A DNA stretch of 64,000 bases. It comes from Candidatus Omnitrophota bacterium. GTDB taxonomy: Bacteria > Omnitrophota > Gorgyraeia > Gygaellales > Profunditerraquicolaceae. The position numbers were made by a program, and so were the translations under genes. The DNA is taken from contig JAGVER010000010.1 of NCBI GenBank assembly GCA_020058085.1, forward strand, positions 1,549 through 65,548. The letters run 5' to 3'. The notes beneath the pieces were generated by a model, which worked only from the letters and a program-made list of their open reading frames with translations, made no database searches and was not told the DNA's origin. Within the stretch, counting starts at the first letter, position 1. Each line of letters starts with the position of its first letter. Positions 4,718 to 55,292 of this stretch are shown in pieces.

Positions 4718-4814
4718 ATTTACCTCCTTGCGCAGAAGCGCATACTGGCCCGTCCTTTAGGGCCAGGTATTGCCAAAAGGGCACACCGGCCTATCCTTTA
4801 GGGCCGGGTGATTT
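4718..4814. repeat. Structured intergenic repeat, copy B (four consecutive hairpins from the tig stop to the clpP SD)
   Basis: TGCGC-AGAA-GCGCA 4729-4742 abuts the SD complement CCTCCT 4723-4728. TACTGGCCC...GGGCCAGGTA 4743-4769; TGCC-AAAAG-GGCA 4771-4783; CACCGGCC...GGCCGGGTG 4784-4810, followed by a T-run and the TAA complement at 4815-4817. Confidence 0.8.
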
Positions 4815-18258: not shown

Positions 18259-19281
18259 TTATAATTTTATAGCTTGGATAACATCATCGGGCGAGATCGC
18301 CTTCATACAACGATTATCTCTACATTTTAGATCATAACAAGGGATTACGCAGCCAACATTTTTTTGCAGGATTATTGTGTTCTTCAAAGGATAAGGCCCG
18401 GTAATCTCAAGCGAGGTCGGGCCAAAAATAGCAATTATCTTTTTTGCGCCTACGCTATTAGCAATATGCATCGGCCCGGAATCAGCAGTAATAAAGAGGC
18501 TCGCCTCTTTAGCTAAAGCGCCTAGTTGCTTTAGATTAAAAACTCCACAGGCAATTATGGGCTTAAATTTCATTTTTTCTTTGATCTGTACGGCCAGAGA
18601 CTGATCGCTATGCGCGCCGGTAATCACTACCTTGGCCCCAAGGCTCTCGATTAATTTATCCGCTAACTCTGCCCAATATTCTTTTGGCCAACGCTTAGAG
18701 AGCCAGTTGCCTCCGGGATTTATTGCCACTAAAAAATCTTTATTACTAACCGAATTCTTATTCAAGAATTCCTGCGCTAACTTAGTATCCTCATCACTTA
18801 AATAAAATTCCGTATACCTATCCTCAACCTTGAGCCCGGCACGTTCAATAATGTCCAAATAATAATCTATGCGGTGAAGAGAATCTCTCGGCGGAGGCAT
18901 AATCTTTTGCGTAAGAAGAAAACCCCTCTTTTTCGTATAATGGCCTATCCTCTTAGGTATGCCGGCAAGGCGGCAGATAAGCGCGCGGCTAAATGACCGA
19001 TGCAGAAGAAATACAATATCAAAATCTTTTTCCCTTAAACTACGTACAAAATTGAGGCGTTCAAATATACCCTTATGCCGGTCATTCTCATCAAATATGA
19101 TAATTTCATCTAAATTAGGGTTGTCTTTTAATACCGGATAGCAACGGCTAGGTATAATACAGGCAATAAAACTCTCCGGAAAATTACGCCGGATATTCCT
19201 GATTGTAGCCGTAGAAAACAAAACATCACCTAGCCAGTTTACGTTGAAGATTAGGATCTTTTCACCAACCAAACCCCTCAT
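18259..19281 (-). CDS. GT9 family glycosyltransferase (LPS heptosyltransferase-like)
   Basis: 340 aa. ILIFNVNWLGDVLFSTATIRNI and TADSGPMHIANSVG motifs. Confidence 0.85.
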   Translation of the reverse strand: MRGLVGEKILIFNVNWLGDVLFSTATIRNIRRNFPESFIACIIPSRCYPVLKDNPNLDEIIIFDENDRHKGIFERLNFVRSLREKDFDIVFLLHRSFSRALICRLAGIPKRIGHYTKKRGFLLTQKIMPPPRDSLHRIDYYLDIIERAGLKVEDRYTEFYLSDEDTKLAQEFLNKNSVSNKDFLVAINPGGNWLSKRWPKEYWAELADKLIESLGAKVVITGAHSDQSLAVQIKEKMKFKPIIACGVFNLKQLGALAKEASLFITADSGPMHIANSVGAKKIIAIFGPTSLEITGPYPLKNTIILQKNVGCVIPCYDLKCRDNRCMKAISPDDVIQAIKL

Positions 19282-23241: not shown

Positions 23242-23315
23242 CTTTATTTCTCCTTGCACAGTAAGTGCATACTGGCCCATCCTTTAAGGCCAGGTATTGC
23301 CCAGTAAGCGCACTT
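23242..23315. repeat. Structured intergenic repeat, copy C (short form)
   Basis: TGCAC-AGTAA-GTGCA 23256-23270 abuts the SD complement. TACTGGCCC...GGCCAGGTA 23271-23298, with the same bulged G as copies A and B. Runs to the stop at 23316-23318. Confidence 0.7.
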
Positions 23316-25301
23316 TTACAATATCTTTTTCAGGGCCTCGCCGACTAAATAACTATCCCTTAGGCAAGGTCTAGCCGGTTTATCGCGCCAAACCGACTTA
23401 ACCGTGTTGCTTAAACCCCCACTTTCAACCAAGTATATATATTTATTCTTAGCAAAATAATTCAGAAGATCTTTATGCTTAAAGCTTAAGGCCGGGGCAT
23501 TAAAGACAAAGACATATTTCTTGCTACTTACCGCTTCAGAGATCATAGATATGCTTTCCGGAGAAGAAATAACAATCTTGCTTAGCCCCAATATACCGCC
23601 TATGGCCTCTGGAATATTCTTTTCATTAGCTACGACCATAAGTTTAATGCGCGGACAATCCTTGAATTCCCTTTTGATGATTTCCTCCACCCCTAAAGAC
23701 GTGCGCCGGGAAGTAGTAACTAAGATTTCAGCGCCTAAGTCCTTAGCTAAAGACTTTACTTCTTTTATCAGATCAGAGATTAATTCACCGGAGAGACGAA
23801 ATCCCTTGCTATCCCCGCCTATCAACAAACCTATGTATAAACTATCTTTATTTAACCCTTGAGATTTAATAAGCCCCACTGATTCTTCTTCTAGGTATTT
23901 ATCATCTATCAGATTAAGCGCGCCTTCAATTGCCTGGATATTCTTTCTTTTTAAAGGACGATCGTGCCGCGGCATAATAACTAAATTAAATTTATCTACC
24001 CCCAATAAAGCCGGACGCAGGATAACGACTGACTTACTTAGATTCTCGCGGGAAAAAATAAAATTTACTCCTGCAATTGAAGAACCCGCCGATATCACTA
24101 TATCCGGCTTAAGCCCTGCCAAGATTCCATAAGTTTTCTCGCTTAAGAATATCTTGAGACACTTAAGGCAACCCTGACAATTGTATCTTCCCGAAAAACA
24201 AACACAGATATTAAATATAAATTTGGCAAATTTATTCTTGAAGTCTATCTCTACTATATTAACCCTGGCCCTGATATTCTTTTCGCTTAACAAATTTTGC
24301 GCTATTTTTGATACTGCCTCTGACTGGCGTAAATGCCCGGTTTTTTTGTCGCTCAAGATAACTATATCTCTCTGGTCAGAATGTTTCCATATCTTATAAG
24401 TCCAAAGATACTCTTTAGGATTCCTACGTATAAAATCTTCAAAAATAGCGACAACCTTCTGGAGATTCTGCTTTATATCCTGATCCTCATCACCGGTCGC
24501 CTCACAAGAGGCGCACTTTGCCTTCCCATAGGCAAAGGTGCCTTTCATTACAATCTCCTTACCCGCCCATACCTTTATCTTCGGCCCGCGGGTACGAACA
24601 AAAAATATCGGAATTAATGCCGAGCCATATTTTAAGGCTAATTTAACCGCTCCTGTAGGCATAGAAGCAGGACGGCCGAAAAAATCAACCAGCGTCCCTG
24701 ACCTACCACCCTGGTCTGCCATCATACCTATAGCCTGATTATTCTTTAAGGCGTTAATTAACCCTCTCAACCCTTGATCACGAGTAATTATCCGGCAATC
24801 TTTATCTTTACGATAATTATTAAGCAAACGGTTTAAACGCGGAAACTTTTGGTCTTTTACAAAGAGAACAAAGGGGAAACCTAAATTCGCAGAGATAACA
24901 TTGGAAAACTCCCAACTTCCGGCATGAACTCCAACCAGGATTGCGCCTTTACCTCTTTTTAAGGCCCCGTTAATATGCTCCACACCTTCAATCTTAATAT
25001 GCTTATCCATATAATTACGATCCACTAATGGAATAAGGAAAACTTCGATAATACTCTGGCCAAATGACTGATAGAATGACCTGGTTAAGCGAGATAATTC
25101 CATGCAGGAAATCCCAGGGCCCAGCGCGAACTTAATATTGGCATAAGCCCTGGCTTTATGTTTAAGGTCAAGATAATAAAAACAATCGCCTAAGCGCCGG
25201 CCTAAGAATAGGCTGGACTCTATGGGTAAAACCCTTAAAATCGGGCCTAAGGTCTTAAAAAGAATACAACCTAAATAATCTGCCAAAAAAAAGTTCTTCA
25301 T
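23316..25301 (-). CDS. Lipid A late acyltransferase (LpxL/HtrB family) fused to an ELM1/DUF1022-like domain
   Basis: 661 aa. The N half has the acyltransferase HAGSWE (HX4E) motif and the MADQGGR region. The C half (LLIGGDSKGFRLS...VTTSRRT) resembles ELM1-family putative glycosyltransferases. Confidence 0.7.
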   Translation of the reverse strand: MKNFFLADYLGCILFKTLGPILRVLPIESSLFLGRRLGDCFYYLDLKHKARAYANIKFALGPGISCMELSRLTRSFYQSFGQSIIEVFLIPLVDRNYMDKHIKIEGVEHINGALKRGKGAILVGVHAGSWEFSNVISANLGFPFVLFVKDQKFPRLNRLLNNYRKDKDCRIITRDQGLRGLINALKNNQAIGMMADQGGRSGTLVDFFGRPASMPTGAVKLALKYGSALIPIFFVRTRGPKIKVWAGKEIVMKGTFAYGKAKCASCEATGDEDQDIKQNLQKVVAIFEDFIRRNPKEYLWTYKIWKHSDQRDIVILSDKKTGHLRQSEAVSKIAQNLLSEKNIRARVNIVEIDFKNKFAKFIFNICVCFSGRYNCQGCLKCLKIFLSEKTYGILAGLKPDIVISAGSSIAGVNFIFSRENLSKSVVILRPALLGVDKFNLVIMPRHDRPLKRKNIQAIEGALNLIDDKYLEEESVGLIKSQGLNKDSLYIGLLIGGDSKGFRLSGELISDLIKEVKSLAKDLGAEILVTTSRRTSLGVEEIIKREFKDCPRIKLMVVANEKNIPEAIGGILGLSKIVISSPESISMISEAVSSKKYVFVFNAPALSFKHKDLLNYFAKNKYIYLVESGGLSNTVKSVWRDKPARPCLRDSYLVGEALKKIL

Positions 25302-26583: not shown

Positions 26584-26735
26584 GATTCTCCTCCTTGCCC
26601 ATAAGGGCACACCCGCGCAATTTTCGCCATAAGGCGAACACTGGCCCAATCCCAATAAGGGCCAGGTGCCTATAAGCGTGGGGTGTTGCGCAGAAGCGCA
26701 CACCGGCCTCTCCTCTTAGGCCGGGTGACATTTTT
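26584..26735. repeat. Structured intergenic repeat, copy A' (three-way junction plus two extra hairpins)
   Basis: 26591-26690 is ~95% identical to 2871-2970. It is extended by TGCGC-AGAA-GCGCA 26687-26700, CACCGGCC...GGCCGGGTG 26701-26727, and T6 at 26731-26736. Confidence 0.85.
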
Positions 26736-30408: not shown

Positions 30409-31758
30409 TTAATTTATCCCCTTCATAATCTTATCTTCTCGTTGTTTATCTAAATTAATAACCTCGAAAATCTTTCCCAACTCACTTTTTTTTAGGCCGG
30501 TGGCAGATTGAAATTCAGCCTGAACAATATCATAAACTCCTTTATGACCATTATCAATTAAGGTCTTGAGAACTTCTCCTGCGGCATCAAATAATTTTTG
30601 AGTTTCAGATTTATTCCAGGAATGCCTAGGCAAGTTAACAAATTTAGGCACATTATTATAAACATCTAATATTTTTCTTACAATTCCACTGTCACCCGTA
30701 GCTTCAAATTCTTCATTTAAACTCGATAAGCTATCAGGAGAATCAGCGTTGGGAGACTTAAAATTTTCAGCCTCCTTTATTATATTTTGTATTATTTTCT
30801 TCTGTTTTCCTAAATAGTAACTCTGCATTTCTTGTATCTTACTTAAAACCGTTTTATCATTACGCGCTACTGTCGCATAAAAATGGAAAGTTCGAGGGTG
30901 AAAATATTCATAATTGCTACAGTAAATTGGATCGGCTAAGTTTACTTTTAACAAAGCGAGTAACTTATCTGGTTGCGGATATTTATAGTAGTAAATTGTA
31001 ATCCTTTGAACATCTTGTGTGGTTAATCCTACCTCTTTTAAAGCAACATTGTAGTCGAATACCTGCCCTTGCAATGACTTTTTTGCAATATTATTATCTA
31101 CTTGAAATTGTAAAGTTTGAGCAAATGCAATAGCCGCATCTTTTATATTTTTTCTTATTTCTTCTTTCTTTTTAAGTGAATGATCTTCTTCAGCTACGAA
31201 TCCAACGCTAACAAAATAAACATAATCTCCGAAAATGAATGTCAAAATTCCTCTTCTGCCATCAGCCTTTATAAGCGGGCCACCATTGGTGCTAACGCTA
31301 CAAGTCGCACCTTTTGGTATATACACCTCTGCATAATATGATCCTTCAAAAAGTTCACCTAGATATTTCTGATAGTCAATCGTTGCTTCTTTAATAGAAT
31401 CCCAAATAGTAAGCGGCATATACCATTTCTCAAATGTCCCCTTCAGGTATTGCTCTCTACCAATTTCTTCCAAATCAGTTAATCCTTCTGTAGAAATTGG
31501 CGTAAATTCAATACGATATAAATGACAGAGATCATCGGTGAAACTAATACTATTTTCATGATCGTCAATTTTACCACCAAAATGTTCATCCACCGGAATT
31601 ATAACTTTATATATTCGCGATGGCGGATAATAGTATTTACTATCTATAATCCCTACAGTAACATTTTTTGACTCTGTCTCCCCATTGCAAATATCTGGAA
31701 TAAACATGTTAATTAGCAGACAACCGAATATTAAATTAGGCAATATATTATTTTTCAT
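30409..31758 (-). CDS. Hypothetical secreted protein (orphan)
   Basis: Start moved to MKNNILPNLIFGCLLINMF, just after the topA stop. AT-rich. No recognisable family. Confidence 0.55.
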   Translation of the reverse strand: MKNNILPNLIFGCLLINMFIPDICNGETESKNVTVGIIDSKYYYPPSRIYKVIIPVDEHFGGKIDDHENSISFTDDLCHLYRIEFTPISTEGLTDLEEIGREQYLKGTFEKWYMPLTIWDSIKEATIDYQKYLGELFEGSYYAEVYIPKGATCSVSTNGGPLIKADGRRGILTFIFGDYVYFVSVGFVAEEDHSLKKKEEIRKNIKDAAIAFAQTLQFQVDNNIAKKSLQGQVFDYNVALKEVGLTTQDVQRITIYYYKYPQPDKLLALLKVNLADPIYCSNYEYFHPRTFHFYATVARNDKTVLSKIQEMQSYYLGKQKKIIQNIIKEAENFKSPNADSPDSLSSLNEEFEATGDSGIVRKILDVYNNVPKFVNLPRHSWNKSETQKLFDAAGEVLKTLIDNGHKGVYDIVQAEFQSATGLKKSELGKIFEVINLDKQREDKIMKGIN

Positions 31759-31771
31759 TCTTTCTGCAATG

Positions 31772-33757
31772 CTACTTATCTTCCGGCAAGTCGCGGGAAA
31801 CAAACCTACACTTGGGGAAATTCGAACAACCATAAAAAAATCCACGCGCAGAGCGACGTTCGATCAATTCTCCGCCGCAGCCTTCTTGCGGGCATTTAAC
31901 CCCAGAAGTAATAGATTTTGAACCTTTACATTCCGGAAACCCCGAGCAGCTTAAGAACTTTCCCCGTCGTCCCCATTTAACAATCATAGGCTTACCGCAA
32001 AGATCACAAACCTTATCAGTAGTAATAACCTCTTTTTTAACATTACTCTGGGCAAAATCAAGGCTGACCTTAAAAGGAGCGTAAAAATCTTCCAGAACCT
32101 TAAGTTTTTTAAGCCTGCCTTCTTCAATTTCGTCCAGCTGCTCTTCCATTAACGCGGTAAATTTTATATCTACAACCTTAGGGAAATATTCCACTAATAA
32201 ATCACATACCTTAAAACCTAATTCCGTGGGATTAAAATAGCCTTTTATCCGGCGTGCGTAATCACGCAGGATTATTGTATAAATTATCGGCGCATAGGTA
32301 GAAGGCCTGCCTATACCATCCTCCTCGAGTGCCTTAATTAATGAGCTATCTGAATAACGCGCCGGCGGCTTAGTAAAATGCTGTGAAGGAGTAATTTTAA
32401 GCAAATCTAAAATATCTCCCTTTTCCAATAAAGGTATTTTATTTTTCTTACCCCCTTGATCATCATCTTCTTCTTCGTCTTCGTTATTCTTATATGCTAA
32501 AAGAAATCCATCAAAGAGAAGCGTACTGCCGGAAGCGCTAAATAGATATTTGCCTGCCTCTATATCTACTGAAATTACAGCGAAAAGAGCTGGCTTCATC
32601 TGGCTGGCGAGAAAACGATTATAAATAAGGGTATATAATTTATGCTGATCGGGAGTTAAAAAATTCTTTAAACTCTCCGGATGGCGCGATACAAACGTTG
32701 GCCGAATCGCCTCATGGGCTTCTTGTGCGAGTTTTTTTACTTTATAATAATTAGGCTTATCCGGCAGGTAATCTTTGCCAAAACTTAAAGCGATATAATC
32801 ACGTACTTCATTAATCGCTTCCGGCGCAACACGCGGAGAATCCGTACGCATATAAGTGATAAGGCCTACTGGATTATCCTGCCCAATATCAATACCTTCG
32901 TAAAGTTGTTGCGCCAAGAGCATAGTCTTATTAGCATTAAACCTAAGCTTATTAAAAGCATCCTGTTGCATAGTGCTGGTAATAAAAGGCGCGCTGGGGT
33001 AACGTTTTTTCTCGCTTTTCTTTATCTCTAAAACTATGAATTTTTCGATCTTGGCTTCTTGGCAAACCTTCTCTGTCTCTTGCTCATTTTTTATCTCGGC
33101 TTTTTGACCACTTACTTTATTTAATTTCGCGAGAAAATTATTCTCGCCCTTAGCTAATTCCGCTTCAACTTCCCAATATTCCTTAGCAATAAATTTCTGA
33201 ATCTCTCGTTCTCTCTCTATTATTAGCCTTAAAGCTACTGATTGGACCCGCCCAGCGCTTAAACCACGGGCAATCTTCTTCCAGAGCAGAGGGCTTAAAA
33301 AATATCCCACAATCCTATCTAAAACCCGACGGCCTACCTGCGCCTCAACCATATTAAGGTCAAAATCCCTTGGGCTTTTGAATGCCTCATTTACCGCCGC
33401 AGGAGTAATCTCATGAAAAGTAACCCTCAAGACATTATTATTCTTCTTAAAAACACGCTCTTTCAACTGCCAGCCGATAGCTTCACCTTCTCGATCAGGA
33501 TCAGTAGCAATATAAATAGCGTCTTTGTTCTTGGCTTCTTTTTTGAGGCTGGCCAAAACCTTCTGCCTGCCCGGTAAGGTAACATACTCCGGCTCAAATC
33601 CTTTTTCAAGGTCAACCCCTAATTTCTTCTGGGGCAGATCAATAATATGCCCCATAGAAGAGACTACACTAAAATTATCTCCTAATATCTTTTTAATAGT
33701 TTTAGCCTTAGTCGGCGACTCTACGATTACTAAACTCTTTCCCTGCATTAAGAGCAC
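31772..33757 (-). CDS. topA: DNA topoisomerase I with C-terminal zinc ribbons
   Basis: 661 aa. TOPRIM LVIVESPTKAKTI, DPDREGE, active-site region YMRTDS, C-terminal CxxC zinc fingers. Confidence 0.95.
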   Translation of the reverse strand: MLLMQGKSLVIVESPTKAKTIKKILGDNFSVVSSMGHIIDLPQKKLGVDLEKGFEPEYVTLPGRQKVLASLKKEAKNKDAIYIATDPDREGEAIGWQLKERVFKKNNNVLRVTFHEITPAAVNEAFKSPRDFDLNMVEAQVGRRVLDRIVGYFLSPLLWKKIARGLSAGRVQSVALRLIIEREREIQKFIAKEYWEVEAELAKGENNFLAKLNKVSGQKAEIKNEQETEKVCQEAKIEKFIVLEIKKSEKKRYPSAPFITSTMQQDAFNKLRFNANKTMLLAQQLYEGIDIGQDNPVGLITYMRTDSPRVAPEAINEVRDYIALSFGKDYLPDKPNYYKVKKLAQEAHEAIRPTFVSRHPESLKNFLTPDQHKLYTLIYNRFLASQMKPALFAVISVDIEAGKYLFSASGSTLLFDGFLLAYKNNEDEEEDDDQGGKKNKIPLLEKGDILDLLKITPSQHFTKPPARYSDSSLIKALEEDGIGRPSTYAPIIYTIILRDYARRIKGYFNPTELGFKVCDLLVEYFPKVVDIKFTALMEEQLDEIEEGRLKKLKVLEDFYAPFKVSLDFAQSNVKKEVITTDKVCDLCGKPMIVKWGRRGKFLSCSGFPECKGSKSITSGVKCPQEGCGGELIERRSARGFFYGCSNFPKCRFVSRDLPEDK

Positions 33758-36808: not shown

Positions 36809-37849
36809 CTAACTAATTCTTTTTATGTAGCTTTTATAATTAGCTTTGATCTCTCTCAAGGAATCCGAGCCGAATTTCTCTAAGATCGCGTCCGCCAAAA
36901 CAAAAGCGCAAGCAGATTCAGCCACAACTCCGGCAGCTTCAACTACACAGGTATCTGATCGTTCTACAGCCGCTTTAGAAGACTTATTAGTTTTAATATT
37001 AACTGAATCCAATGGCTTCATTAAAGTGCTTATAGGTTTCATACACGCGCGCAGAACTAATTCCTCACCATTGCTAATGCCACCCTCAATCCCTCCGGCA
37101 TTATTAGTCTTACGTAAATAACCTTTACCCTTAGCATGATAAATTTCATCGTGGACCTCGGAACCAAAACTTATAGCATAACCAGATCCCAAACCAACTT
37201 CAAATGACTTTATCCCCGGTATAGAGATGATCGCTTGAGCAAGACGGCCATCTAATCTTTTATCCGCTTGGACATAACTACCCAAACCAACGGGAAGGCC
37301 CTTGGCTCTAACTTCAAATATCCCTCCGACTGTATCCTTAAGCCTGATAGCCTCACTAATTTTATCTCTCATAGAACCGGGAGTATTTTCTCCGCCAACA
37401 GACAAAATTCTGCTAGATATACGCACATTAAATTCATTTAAGAAAATTTTACATAACGCACCTATGCCTACGCTAGCAACAGTACTGCGCGCAGAAGCAC
37501 GCTCTAGGACTTCCCTTATATCCGTAAAACCGTATTTTAGTAACCCCGCTAAGTCCGCATGTCCGGGACGAGGAGAGAATACCTTATACAGCTTCTCAAT
37601 ACTAAAATCATTATTCTTAATCAAGAGAGTAAGCGGACTCCCTAAGGTTAAATTATTTTTCAACCCGGAGAATATTTCGGCACGGTCATTCTCAAGCTGC
37701 ATCCGCTTCCCACGGCCAAAACCCGCCTGCCTGCGCTTTAATTCCTGATTGACTTTAAGTAAATCTATTTTCAAACCTGCCGGCATACCTTCTAATATTG
37801 CTACAATCGCCCTGCCGTGCGATTCACCCGCTGTTAGACATCTTAACAT
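36809..37849 (-). CDS. aroC: Chorismate synthase
   Basis: Start at MLRCLTAGESHG (AAGGAGG SD). GRGKRM and RSDTCVVEAAGVV motifs. The first 9 codons of the ORF track lie in the repeat. Confidence 0.93.
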   Translation of the reverse strand: MLRCLTAGESHGRAIVAILEGMPAGLKIDLLKVNQELKRRQAGFGRGKRMQLENDRAEIFSGLKNNLTLGSPLTLLIKNNDFSIEKLYKVFSPRPGHADLAGLLKYGFTDIREVLERASARSTVASVGIGALCKIFLNEFNVRISSRILSVGGENTPGSMRDKISEAIRLKDTVGGIFEVRAKGLPVGLGSYVQADKRLDGRLAQAIISIPGIKSFEVGLGSGYAISFGSEVHDEIYHAKGKGYLRKTNNAGGIEGGISNGEELVLRACMKPISTLMKPLDSVNIKTNKSSKAAVERSDTCVVEAAGVVAESACAFVLADAILEKFGSDSLREIKANYKSYIKRIS

Positions 37850-38098
37850 ATTAAACCTCCTTGCGCAGTAGCGCACATCCCGCAGAAAACGGGATACTCG
37901 ACATTCGCCTCAGATGAGGCGCACTTTGCCTCGATTGGCAAAGGTGCATTTATGTCGAGGTACCGGCCTCTCGCCCAGAATGGGCCGCCCCCTGAAGGGA
38001 ACGCTTGGCAATCGCTTCAGAAGAAGCGTACTTTGCTTTCAAATAGGCAAAGGTACATTTATGCCAAGGTGCAAATAAGGCCGGGTGCTAACACTTTC
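37850..38098. repeat. Structured intergenic repeat, copy D (249 nt; two tandem three-way-junction modules plus flanking hairpins)
   Basis: TGCGC-AGTA-GCGCA 37862-37875; ATCCCG..CGGGAT 37877-37895. Module M1 37897-37959 and module M2 38004-38068. Outer stem GTACCGGCC 37960-37968 / GGCCGGGTGC 38079-38088. Spans the SNase stop to the aroC SD. Confidence 0.85.
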
Positions 38099-38668
38099 TT
38101 ACTCCTTCCAAAGACCGCGCTTATTTTCACGCGCCTCTCGGTATAATTTTAAAAATAAATCCGCGTATTTTACATTCGGCGGATAAGTCATTAGTGAGGC
38201 ATAGCCCTCTTTGACTATCTCCGCATTCACAAATGTGCCGTCTTTTAAATAAACATAGGCAAGTAACCTCTTATACCTATCCTGCCTCTCTACGTCGAAC
38301 TCTAAACTGACAACTTTGCCTTCAACCAAATCTTTGGTAAACTGATAGGAGCGCTGGCCCACCTCTTTAATCTCTAAGACACTCTCTTGACTGCGCTTGG
38401 AATCGCGATAAAGCTTATCGGACTCGTGTATTTCAGGCGTATCAATTCCTATTAAACGCACCCTCTCCCCGCTAGCCAAAACAAACGTATCCCCATCCAC
38501 CACTCTCTTGACTACAATATTCGCATAATCATAGGATTTGCCAACGGGGATCTTAAACTTAACCTCTTCTCGGGAATGAAAACTAGGATCCAGGTCTCCA
38601 GCATAAAGGTAAACGCTAAAAATTAAGATACCTACTATAGAAAACAAAATGAATCTAAATCTCTTCAT
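38099..38668 (-). CDS. Secreted/anchored thermonuclease (staphylococcal nuclease homologue)
   Basis: 189 aa. Hydrophobic N-terminus; VVDGDTF...VRLIGIDTPE, and the YGRLLAYV-like RYKRLLAYVY. Confidence 0.85.
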   Translation of the reverse strand: MKRFRFILFSIVGILIFSVYLYAGDLDPSFHSREEVKFKIPVGKSYDYANIVVKRVVDGDTFVLASGERVRLIGIDTPEIHESDKLYRDSKRSQESVLEIKEVGQRSYQFTKDLVEGKVVSLEFDVERQDRYKRLLAYVYLKDGTFVNAEIVKEGYASLMTYPPNVKYADLFLKLYREARENKRGLWKE

Positions 38669-42132: not shown

Positions 42133-42174
42133 TATTTAATCCCTCCCCCCCTATCCGCTAATTAAAATATATTA

Positions 42175-42251
42175 GATTAGCGGGTGACGAGGACTGATTC
42201 CGAGCGAGCGTGATGCGAGCGAGGAACAGCCCTCGGCAGGACCCGCTAATC
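42175..42251 (-). terminator. Long imperfect hairpin overlapping the yjbQ stop; terminator candidate
   Basis: 11-bp closing stem GATTAGCGGGT (42175-42185) / ACCCGCTAATC (42241-42251), with inner CGAGG/CCTCG pairing. On the minus strand it is followed by UCUAAUAUAUUUUAAUU. A third CCGCTAA copy lies at 42145-42151. Confidence 0.4.
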
Positions 42252-53650: not shown

Positions 53651-53724
53651 TCCCAGTAACTAATATTCTCATATAATTGTTTCCACAATCATCTTTTAAT
53701 TAAATCTATTGCGTAATTCCAGGA

Positions 53725-53985
53725 CTACGAATAAACTTCTTTCCTATGGCTTATCCGTAAAATATAAATCAAAATTTCCTTCTCCGCTATCTTGTAGATT
53801 ACGCGATAATCTCCCCAACGATATCGCCAATAACCTTGAAAATCGCCTTTTAATGACTTACCTAGACCCTTAGGATCTTTAGCAAGATAGGTTTCAATAC
53901 GATTAAGGATCTTCTTAGCTATGGATTTATCGAGTTTCTTAAGATCCTCTTCGATAGAATCAAGATAAGAAACTTTATAAACCAA
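53725..53985 (-). CDS. Type II toxin, RelE/ParE family
   Basis: 86 aa. WRYRWGDYRVIYKI...ILIYILRISHRKEVY is the RelE/ParE fold pattern. 11-nt overlap with the upstream antitoxin gene. Confidence 0.85.
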   Translation of the reverse strand: MVYKVSYLDSIEEDLKKLDKSIAKKILNRIETYLAKDPKGLGKSLKGDFQGYWRYRWGDYRVIYKIAEKEILIYILRISHRKEVYS

Positions 53986-54193
53986 GCCTATTCCTCAACT
54001 CTTTGGCAGAAATAATTTTAGATTTGGGATCGCTGAAACGATCCTTGGCAATCTGTGCATCGGCATAATCTTCCAAATAGTGCGCCAAAGCATCAGTAAC
54101 ATAAAAAGTTTCGCTTCGACGCGTAGCTTTTGCCAATGAGGTTAGCCTATTAACTAATCCAACAGGTAAACGAAATGCTTTTAATAAGGTCAT
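53975..54193 (-). CDS. Type II antitoxin (ribbon-helix-helix type)
   Basis: 72 aa. The N-terminal beta-strand FRLPVGLVNRL, followed by helices, is typical of RHH. Precedes and overlaps the toxin gene. Confidence 0.75.
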   Translation of the reverse strand: MTLLKAFRLPVGLVNRLTSLAKATRRSETFYVTDALAHYLEDYADAQIAKDRFSDPKSKIISAKELRNRLGL

Positions 54194-54218
54194 GTTTTCA
54201 ACCTCCTCTCACAATAAG

Positions 54219-54247
54219 AGTATAACACTGTTATACAAGTATTGCAA
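54219..54247 (-). promoter_or_regulatory. Promoter with embedded palindromic operator for the TA operon
   Basis: Minus strand TTGCAA (54242-54247) - 17 nt - TATACT (54219-54224). The spacer contains the inverted repeat GTATAAC-A-G-TGTTATAC (54220-54236). GAGGAGG SD downstream. Confidence 0.55.
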
Positions 54248-54264
54248 GATTATTTTTTACATCC

Positions 54265-55140: not shown

Positions 55141-55292
55141 ACCCCACCTCCTGTAAGTGCACATCCCGCAGAAAGCGGGATACTCGACATTCATTTATGT
55201 CGATGTACCGGCCTCTTAGATATTGAGCACCTTATGCTTTAATCTAGCGAAATCCTTGATCGAACACAAGTGAGATCAAGGAAGGCCGGGTG
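55141..55292. repeat. Structured intergenic repeat, copy E
   Basis: ATCCCGC..GCGGGAT 55163-55181. CTCGACAT-TC-ATTTATGTCGA 55183-55203 is the M1 outer stem with the two inner hairpins absent. Outer GTACCGGCC 55205-55213 / GGCCGGGTGT 55284-55293 encloses TCCTTGATC...GATCAAGGA. Runs from the purM TAA to the SD. Confidence 0.8.

Follow-up and report, generated by a model that had tools for sequence, protein, structure and literature searches.

Three-way junctions upstream of aroC in an Omnitrophota genome as probable nested copies of a dispersed palindromic repeat

We have analysed a 64-kb stretch of DNA (the window) from a Candidatus Omnitrophota bacterium, an affiliation indicated by the relatives of its chorismate synthase, and in particular the spacer that separates a gene for an SNase-domain protein from the chorismate synthase gene aroC (Table 1). 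The window has a G+C content of 39.8%, and carries 57 of its 60 long open reading frames (ORFs) on the minus strand, many stop and start codons overlapping or abutting. Since the SNase gene and aroC both lie on the minus strand, the sense RNA of the spacer is the minus strand, the reverse complement of the sequences as the initial annotation wrote them; the bulged base of the long hairpins is a G on the plus strand and thus a C in the sense RNA. The minus strand of the spacer has neither a promoter-like nor a terminator-like site, and the array of hairpins that fills it is therefore likely to be an intercistronic part of an SNase-aroC transcript.

An initial annotation had described two tandem elements in this spacer, M1 and M2, as three-way junctions that differ by compensatory changes. 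The sequences quoted for them are present where they were placed, and both elements do fold as look-alike three-way junctions, with predicted energies on the minus strand of -32.4 kcal/mol (z = -7.0) for M1 and -23.2 kcal/mol (z = -4.4) for M2. The opposite strands fold just as readily (z = -6.2 and -5.2, respectively), and the entire 257-nt spacer has a predicted fold of -110 kcal/mol (z = -6.7). The compensatory changes are also borne out: among 25 scored pairs, M1 and M2 differ by five double, pair-preserving changes, three of them in the outer stem (its base included), one at the base of the inner long hairpin and one in the short hairpin. There are no wobble intermediates, and no double change appears in any of the controls in which pairing partners were slid. 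The statement that only one pair is broken does not hold, as M2 has three (A.C at 2/69, T.T at 11/61 and C.A at 26/35). Two further positions that had been singled out for comparison, 2889-2969 and 26609-26689, share the architecture, at 2890-2965 and 26610-26685.

The unit that repeats is a 41-46 nt module on the gene-sense strand, composed of two consecutive hairpins, A and B, rather than the three-way junction. Hairpin A consists of YACC, a variable stem strand of 5-7 bp, a loop of 8-11 nt with a conserved A..GGA motif, the complementary stem strand, and GTR, with one bulged C as its fourth base; with 25-30 nt, nine pairs and a single bulged base, it is a short (20-40 nt) imperfect palindrome in the sense used for repetitive extragenic palindromic (REP) sequences. 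Hairpin B follows directly, with a variable stem of 5-6 bp and a TTNT-type loop. What stays constant across the family is the CAC/GTG base, the bulged C and the loop, on stems that vary; stem types include CGGCCY, TGGCCY, TTTGCC, CCGCGC, CGACGC, TTGGCA, TTGCCT, CCGACA and others, and 23 further stem types were identified. Many A loops are partly self-complementary, so that the DNA is palindromic almost to its centre.

A covariance model (R1) built from 21 copies has ten matches in the window, all on the minus strand. Six hairpins with filled loops bring the number of A hairpins in the window to 16, at seven sites and all in the gene sense; a strict scan of the window for the hairpin type gave nine matches on the minus strand and one on the plus strand, compared with 0.3 in shuffled sequences. 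Dispersed near-identical blocks are also present within the window (103 nt at 94% and 37 nt at 95% identity). Family-wide, 97.7-97.9% of cells are paired, a percentage inflated by the structure-aware scans that collected the copies, and double-sided changes occur at 7/9 and 8/9 pairs; no such bias attaches to the variety of stems carried by one constant frame.

No curated RNA family corresponds to the module. The Rfam search suggested by the initial annotation returned nothing for the 64 kb at the gathering score; with the threshold relaxed to E<=10, a scan of 37600-38400 gave a single match, a chance snoRNA elsewhere, and in the module-bearing loci together with L213 and L214 (L-numbers are labels of compared loci or stretches) the sole match was an unrelated TPP riboswitch in L163. 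The literature searched held nothing specific on repeats of Omnitrophota or on repeats adjoining Shine-Dalgarno sequences. The family thus appears to be undescribed in Rfam and in this literature, as do its habit of nesting in itself, its location at ribosome-binding sites and its possible RAYT partner (REP-associated tyrosine transposase; see below).

Read in the sense direction, the spacer comprises an outer stem enclosing M2 and two small hairpins, then M1, two more hairpins, AGGAGG and the start codon, and the Shine-Dalgarno sequence stays free of pairing in the predicted folds. In M2, a TTTGCC-type module occupies a TTGGCA-type module that itself lies within a CGGCCT-type hairpin, and in M1 a TTTGCC-type module occupies a TCGACAT-type hairpin. 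Because every host hairpin has an unfilled counterpart, the three-way junction is best described, from these comparisons, as the by-product of an A+B module lodged in the loop of another A hairpin. The TCGACAT host, filled in M1 as AAATG(A+B)AATG, occurs empty at 55181-55207 as TACATCGACATAAATGAATGTCGAGTA with the loop AAATGAATG. The TTGGCA host, filled in M2 as TAAATG(A+B)AT, has the empty form CACCTTGGCATAAAGGATTGCCAAGTG, loop TAAAGGAT, in L045 and L144, where it is followed by the same type of B partner as M2 (CGTCCC-TTCT-GGGACG in L144 and GCCCC-TTCT-GGGC in L045). The CCGCGC host is filled at the two positions 2890-2965 and 26610-26685 and empty in L010, L069 and L063. The outermost CGGCCT host, filled at 38087-37961, has the empty loop TTATCGGATA in L213 and L020, in both at the corresponding position upstream of aroC. 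Other nested cases are found in L144 and L171. Nesting interrupts the conserved loop motif, and GG/GGA is missing from the inner hairpin of both M1 and M2.

This nesting changes what the compensatory changes mean. Since the host hairpins of M1 and M2 differ in type, three of the five changes separate two host subfamilies (TCGACAT and TTGGCA); the other two lie between related inner modules. A TTGGCA-type hairpin with an identical stem is found in unrelated genomes. The inference of selection on structure holds: the ability to form a hairpin is kept while stems vary, between M1 and M2 and more strongly across the family, but the two elements are not a dedicated pair of three-way-junction RNAs.

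Comparison with relatives places most of the aroC array among recent gains. In most of them, only ~5-30 nt separate the SNase stop codon from the Shine-Dalgarno sequence of aroC. L081 and L214, whose aroC is 90% identical, have spacers of 40 and 57 nt without any module, and the same holds at 90% for L081-L083; the flank GGAGGTTTAATATG at the start of aroC is identical in L081, where the array is absent. The closest relative found, L213 (aroC 92%), has one simple module, CACCCGGCCTTATCGGATAGGCCGGTG-TGCCCTTTCTGGGCA-AGGAGG, whose stem is that of the outermost hairpin in the window. As relatives at 90% lack the module and one at 92% has a single copy, most of the array is likely to be recent. A decayed copy (13.5 bits) remains in L084 (aroC 86%), and L006, L010, L020 and L069 have other modules at the SNase-aroC junction. 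Over 21 kb of synteny L081 has no copy, compared with nine in the window, and its GDT1 leader lacks a block of ~145 nt that the window has. Copy density also differs, with 16 A hairpins in the 64 kb of the window and 13 in 80 aroC loci (1.13 Mb). These comparisons demonstrate mobility, or at least copying to new sites. In L213 the gene before aroC is not an SNase gene, and ~330 nt of non-coding DNA with a long hairpin lie between them (556-890; no Rfam match at E<=0.1).

The genes downstream of the modules in the window are functionally unrelated (serA-like, clpP, glycosyltransferase, GDT1, aroC and SPFH genes), and one copy lies in frame within a coding region, in the LpxL-like acyltransferase domain (PF03279 spans the site), where it encodes about GTFAYGKAKCASCE. 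This LpxL-like protein has a unique 14-residue (14-codon) insert at the module site that is missing in 13 of 13 orthologues, and the copy is 93% identical over 27 nt to the inner module of M1. As a module can land in coding sequence, copying would take place at the level of DNA and independently of any leader function. The host ORF, of 661 residues (23316-25301, minus strand), is a fusion of PF03279 (Lip_A_acyltrans) with an ELM1-like domain (PF06258), and the fusion is kept in relatives such as L001 and L051.

Table 1. Features of the window and candidate RAYT-like genes of other loci (positions refer to the window unless a locus is named).
Feature	Position	Strand	Remarks
SNase-domain gene	38099-38668	minus	
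Outermost A hairpin, CACC-CGGCCT...AGGCCG-GTA; loop filled by M2 and two small hairpins	37961-38087	minus	inverted repeat and minimum-free-energy fold of the spacer
M2: TTGGCA-type A hairpin, loop TAAATG^AT holding inner A+B, giving a three-way junction	38002-38071	minus	
M2 inner A+B: TACC-TTTGC..GCAAA-GTA, then CGCTTC-TTCT-GAAGCG	38013-38055	minus	R1 38.0 bits
Small hairpin TTCCC-TTCA-GGGGG, B partner of the TTGGCA hairpin	37988-38001	minus	spacer fold
Small hairpin GCCCA-TTC-TGGGC within the outer loop	37973-37985	minus	spacer fold
M1: TCGACAT-type A hairpin, loop AAATG^AATG holding inner A+B, giving a three-way junction	37895-37962	minus	
M1 inner A+B: CACC-TTTGCC-AATCGA-GGCAAA-GTG, then CGCCTC-ATCT-GAGGCG	37906-37946	minus	R1 35.9 bits
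Hairpin ATCCCG-TTTTCTG-CGGGAT	37877-37895	minus	inverted repeat and fold; 95% identical copy at 55163-55181
Terminal B hairpin TGCGC-TACT-GCGCA, adjoining the Shine-Dalgarno sequence	37862-37875	minus	repeat family and fold
Shine-Dalgarno AGGAGG (37861-37856) and aroC start codon (37849-37847)	37847-37861	minus	
Chorismate synthase gene (aroC)	36809-37849	minus	true ATG 37849-37847; P0001 = 346 aa, identity 100%
Nested three-way junction (CCGCGC-type A around TGGCC-type A+B), terminal B and Shine-Dalgarno of serA-like gene	2866-2965	minus	
Two tandem A+B modules upstream of clpP	4729-4810	minus	
Single A+B upstream of glycosyltransferase gene	23255-23296	minus	
In-frame A+B within LpxL-like acyltransferase domain	24498-24540	minus	R1 45.7 bits
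Simple A+B, nested three-way junction and terminal B, upstream of GDT1-family gene	26586-26727	minus	
Sister composite upstream of SPFH gene: CGGCCT-type A with other hairpins in its loop, empty TCGACAT hairpin, TCCCG hairpin, truncated B	55163-55292	minus	
RAYT-like Y1 genes	L059 3006-3488; L180 401-883; L010 14134-14805; L215 2058-2534 and 10001-10483; L216, L218 10001-10483		

We conclude, with a probability of roughly 70%, that M1 and M2 belong, as nested copies, to a family of small palindromic repeats that is dispersed, polymorphic for insertion and similar to REP sequences and Rickettsia palindromic elements (RPE). New copies are found in the gaps between stop codons and Shine-Dalgarno sequences, at the apex of host A loops, in tandem arrays and, once, in frame in a coding sequence. 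The aroC spacer may have begun as one simple module, such as that of L213. M2, itself a TTGGCA-type module already holding a TTTGCC-type module, would then have been added inside the loop of this first module, and M1 between its A and B hairpins. The DNA itself would be copied by way of a cruciform or a folded single strand, an intermediate recognised by its structure together with the CAC/GTG base and the loop motif, much as RAYT (Y1/HUH) transposases handle REP sequences. The need to keep a hairpin for propagation could account for the compensatory changes, to which arm-to-arm templated repair of quasi-palindromes may have contributed. Once transcribed, the hairpins would sit in intercistronic mRNA with the Shine-Dalgarno sequence free, where the cell probably tolerates them or draws a mild benefit from 5' protection or insulation. 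A general caution for scans of this kind follows: convincing compensatory changes can stem from a proliferating palindromic repeat and not from a dedicated regulatory RNA.

Candidate enzymes are present in the phylum. RAYT-like Y1 proteins (IS200-like, PF01797) were detected by tblastn in three module-bearing loci, L059, L180 and L010; the family has 2574 members at E<=1e-20, many of them from Omnitrophota, and one gene occupies the same chromosomal position in L215 and L218. In L059 the gene is flanked by the inverted repeats TAGCACCGTTTGCAAACC / GGTTTGCAAACGGTGCTA. More generally, CACC...GGTG or TACC...GGTA palindromes flank the RAYT-like genes of L059, L215, L216 and L218, as GCACC-N-GGTGC palindromes and as YACCTGTCCC...GGGACAGGTR (TACC..GGTA in L215, CACC..GGTG in L216), and in these loci the ends also recur without a gene, dispersed through the intergenic DNA. 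The flanking palindromes and gene-less copies together indicate that a REP/RAYT-type system exists in Omnitrophota. The core of the flanks and its Y/R covariation match the base of hairpin A. The repeat family is defined in an uncultured phylum by an A+B grammar, an unusually strict position at ribosome-binding sites and a candidate family of RAYT-like Y1 enzymes.

Several observations weigh against the repeat-family reading. No transposase or Y1_Tnp domain is encoded in the 64-kb window, no A+B module flanks a RAYT-like gene among those examined (R1 has zero matches in L215-L219), and the palindromes at the RAYT-like genes of L180 and L010 are without the CACC/GGTG core. No consistent target-site duplication was found in the aroC and GDT1 leaders compared with L081 and L213, in the host loops or in the LpxL-like gene, with borders uncertain by 1-2 nt. 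A fixed insertion target was also considered and rejected, as the flanks on both strands give a loose preference only (purine- or A-rich upstream, A downstream, the loop apex); host loops are entered at the apex, but the exact place relative to the conserved GG varies (ahead of it, inside it or behind it). Several further features would suit a function in RNA as well or better. The loop is almost invariant: in 77 ten-nt loops, position 3 is A in 74, position 6 is G in 67, position 7 is G in 76 and position 8 is A in 69, and an identical 27-mer is present at 17 sites of divergent contigs. A Shine-Dalgarno-like sequence lies within 8 nt after the module in 50 metagenome copies, in 42 of these at offset 0 after B. 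A sense ORF starts just after the module in 63 of 94 metagenome copies, ~8 having antisense neighbours only, and the modules have gene-sense orientation in 16/16 cases in the window and 12/13 at aroC loci. The extreme gene-strand bias (57 of 60 ORFs) makes orientation to transcription inseparable from orientation to replication.

Counted from the first base of the Shine-Dalgarno sequence, the start codon follows at 10-13 nt. One stem variant alone is present in at least 120 metagenome stretches, tandem arrays included, and ~83 true modules are among the matches listed. Tandem arrays occur in L136, L113, L142 and L155, and antisense copies in L045 and L190; the only inverted pair is at 4600-4700 of L045. 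A subclass with B = TGCCGC..GCGGCA is located in 3' regions before terminators. The crude ORF-based assignment of orientation over-counts antisense copies (both copies of L168 proved to be sense). Six matches in viral contigs were all rejected as chance occurrences in G+C-rich DNA, with neither the loop motif nor a B hairpin.

These features of position would be expected if the A+B module were a functional cis-acting RNA cassette, a portable 5' leader for which mobility is secondary, and whose hairpins protect or define the 5' end of a cistron or use the A..GGA loop to recruit the 30S subunit or a conserved RNA-binding protein. We regard this alternative as possible though unlikely. The prevailing sense orientation, the exact abutment of B on AGGAGG, the phylum-wide conservation of loop and bulge on variable stems, the transcription of the array with SNase and aroC suggested by a spacer without promoter or terminator, and the unpaired Shine-Dalgarno sequence in predicted folds all speak for this reading. 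Orthologous spacers of close relatives are, however, without the module, one copy has decayed, another lies in frame inside a coding region, and there are antisense copies as well as copies in 3' untranslated regions before terminators. Nesting moreover splits the very loop motif that would be read, and M1 and M2 retain no GG in their inner hairpins.

The pairing itself favours RNA no more than DNA. Both strands of M1 and M2 fold alike, and G.U pairs make up ~1% of A stems, neither of which is a specific pointer to RNA. In B stems, 11 G.U pairs (sense) compare with 9 A.C pairs, small counts with imperfect registration, and this test of wobble pairs by strand does not tell RNA and DNA apart. 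Near-strict Watson-Crick stems, no excess of sense-strand G.U over A.C, strands that are alike, self-complementary loops, nests that destroy loops, and decay point to DNA. Binding of the GGA loops by a CsrA-type protein is unsupported, though still possible: tblastn with the E. coli and B. subtilis proteins found no homologue in 2.1 Mb of relatives, whose sampling is incomplete, and the inner loops of M1 and M2 lack GGA.

In its boldest form the leader explanation would make A+B a phylum-wide, self-propagating cassette whose RNA is read by a conserved Omnitrophota factor, a suggestion we put forward tentatively. Such a factor might recognise the CAC/GUG base, the bulged C and the A..GGA loop, and might set the 5' end, stability or translation rate of the downstream cistron. 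A selfish repeat would then be a general system of post-transcriptional control, and, if the position next to the Shine-Dalgarno sequence is functional, the module would be a natural, transferable 5' leader. A more modest variant holds that the modules are substrates of a new, CACC-tagged branch of the REP/RAYT systems.

Distinctly less probable is that the hairpins are host DNA sites akin to bacterial interspersed mosaic elements (BIMEs), bound by a nucleoid, topoisomerase or recombination protein and kept for chromosome organisation. Strictly Watson-Crick stems, equal folding of both strands, partly self-complementary loops that leave the DNA palindromic nearly to its centre, and a core conserved across the phylum would suit such sites. 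They occur in some close relatives and not in others, genomes differ widely in copy number, the variable stems are unsuited to a sequence-specific binder of duplex DNA, and the position next to the Shine-Dalgarno sequence is left unexplained. That M1 and M2 form a dedicated three-way-junction RNA regulating aroC (a riboswitch, attenuator or protein-binding leader responding to aromatic amino-acid status), as their place directly upstream of aroC and their stable, covarying fold might suggest, can hardly be maintained and is already contradicted by the comparative data, since the junctions are nested copies, neither Rfam threshold gives a match, the same modules precede the five other genes named above, at least 12 relatives have a spacer of a few to ~30 nt, L081 and L214 lack the module altogether, and the inner module recurs inside coding sequence.

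The A+B family is best filed among small palindromic repeats, and with none of the named families. REP sequences and BIMEs are short, G+C-rich imperfect palindromes with an asymmetric bulge, dispersed mostly between co-directional genes, transcribed in mRNAs and of lineage-specific consensus; they are defined by an unpaired GTAG or CGTC tag at one end and by alternating orientation (PMC3733652). The A hairpins are similar in being short, G+C-rich palindromes with a bulge, present in many dispersed, mainly extragenic copies between co-directional genes with an occasional intragenic one; they too would be transcribed within mRNAs and differ in consensus between lineages, and RAYT-like genes with CACC/GGTG-core palindromes occur in the same phylum. 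In contrast to REP, no GTAG or CGTC lies next to the hairpins, and the conserved ends CAC(C)...GTG pair with each other. The unit comprises two different hairpins, most copies abut a Shine-Dalgarno sequence, and no RAYT gene flanked by A+B modules was found. Unlike in BIMEs and REPINs, units are head-to-tail or nested and not alternating, and those of the window are all on one strand.

RPEs are intergenic and also occur in frame in protein-coding genes without destroying them (PMC10969869). The insertion in the LpxL-like gene is comparable, but the unit is 41-46 nt instead of ~100-150 bp, a single coding copy is present in 64 kb whereas RPEs are often found in ORFs, and the phylum is unrelated; this comparison is by description only. 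The pneumococcal BOX, RUP and SPRITE repeats and the Correia elements of Neisseria are modular, form intergenic clusters, insert into one another, and form stable RNA structures that affect their neighbours (PMC10969869). The A+B family is likewise modular and intergenic, with elements that insert into one another; the terminal inverted repeats of those elements, their frequent target-site duplications, and their promoters or RNase III sites are not seen here. It also differs from miniature inverted-repeat transposable elements in being composed of two separate hairpins, with ends (CACC... and ...GCA) that are not mutual inverted repeats.

Conserved structure on variable stems in a uniform orientation is, in principle, reminiscent of the attC sites of integrons, although recognition as a single strand is only presumed for A+B. 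An attC site is recognised as a folded single strand, its structure and extrahelical bases being conserved while the stem varies, and is uniformly oriented with respect to genes. The modules have no R'/R'' core sites (GTTRRRY), integrase or cassette organisation, and are much smaller. Of the hallmarks of a gene-specific leader, the family shows covariation that supports the fold, on copy sets whose structure-aware collection inflates the percentage paired; there is no match to a curated RNA family, the modules are not kept upstream of aroC in relatives, and the genes downstream are unrelated.

Other hairpin repeats were observed in the course of this work. A second small family, TCCTTGATC..GATCAAGGA with a related CCTTG..CAAGG form, is present in the window at 55253-55282 and 1002-1275 and in L081 at 18880-18941; one copy is lodged in the CGGCCT hairpin loop upstream of the SPFH gene, and a homologue is found in a different spacer of L081. 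Yet another family, GGGGACACCCTT..AAGGGTGTCCCC, has three copies in one spacer of L086 (5224-5422), a relative whose aroC is 87% identical. An imperfect hairpin of some length, GCGGGTCCTGCCGAGG..CAGTCCTCGTCACCCGC (window 42133-42245, minus strand; L081 5269-5373; L084 5801-5891), precedes an FMN-reductase-like gene and keeps both its sequence and its place in relatives without A+B modules. It has no Rfam match and, unlike the A+B modules, looks like a genuinely conserved cis element.

Two further observations concern the minus strand. An ORF of 478 residues (30409-31845), without a Pfam match, lies between topA and a xerC-like gene; as it is missing in the syntenic L081, it is probably a lineage-specific insertion. 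In the 614-nt gap at 53651-54264, two small ORFs resemble, by eye only, an antitoxin and a RelE/ParE-type toxin (..GDYRVIYKI..ISHRKEVY).

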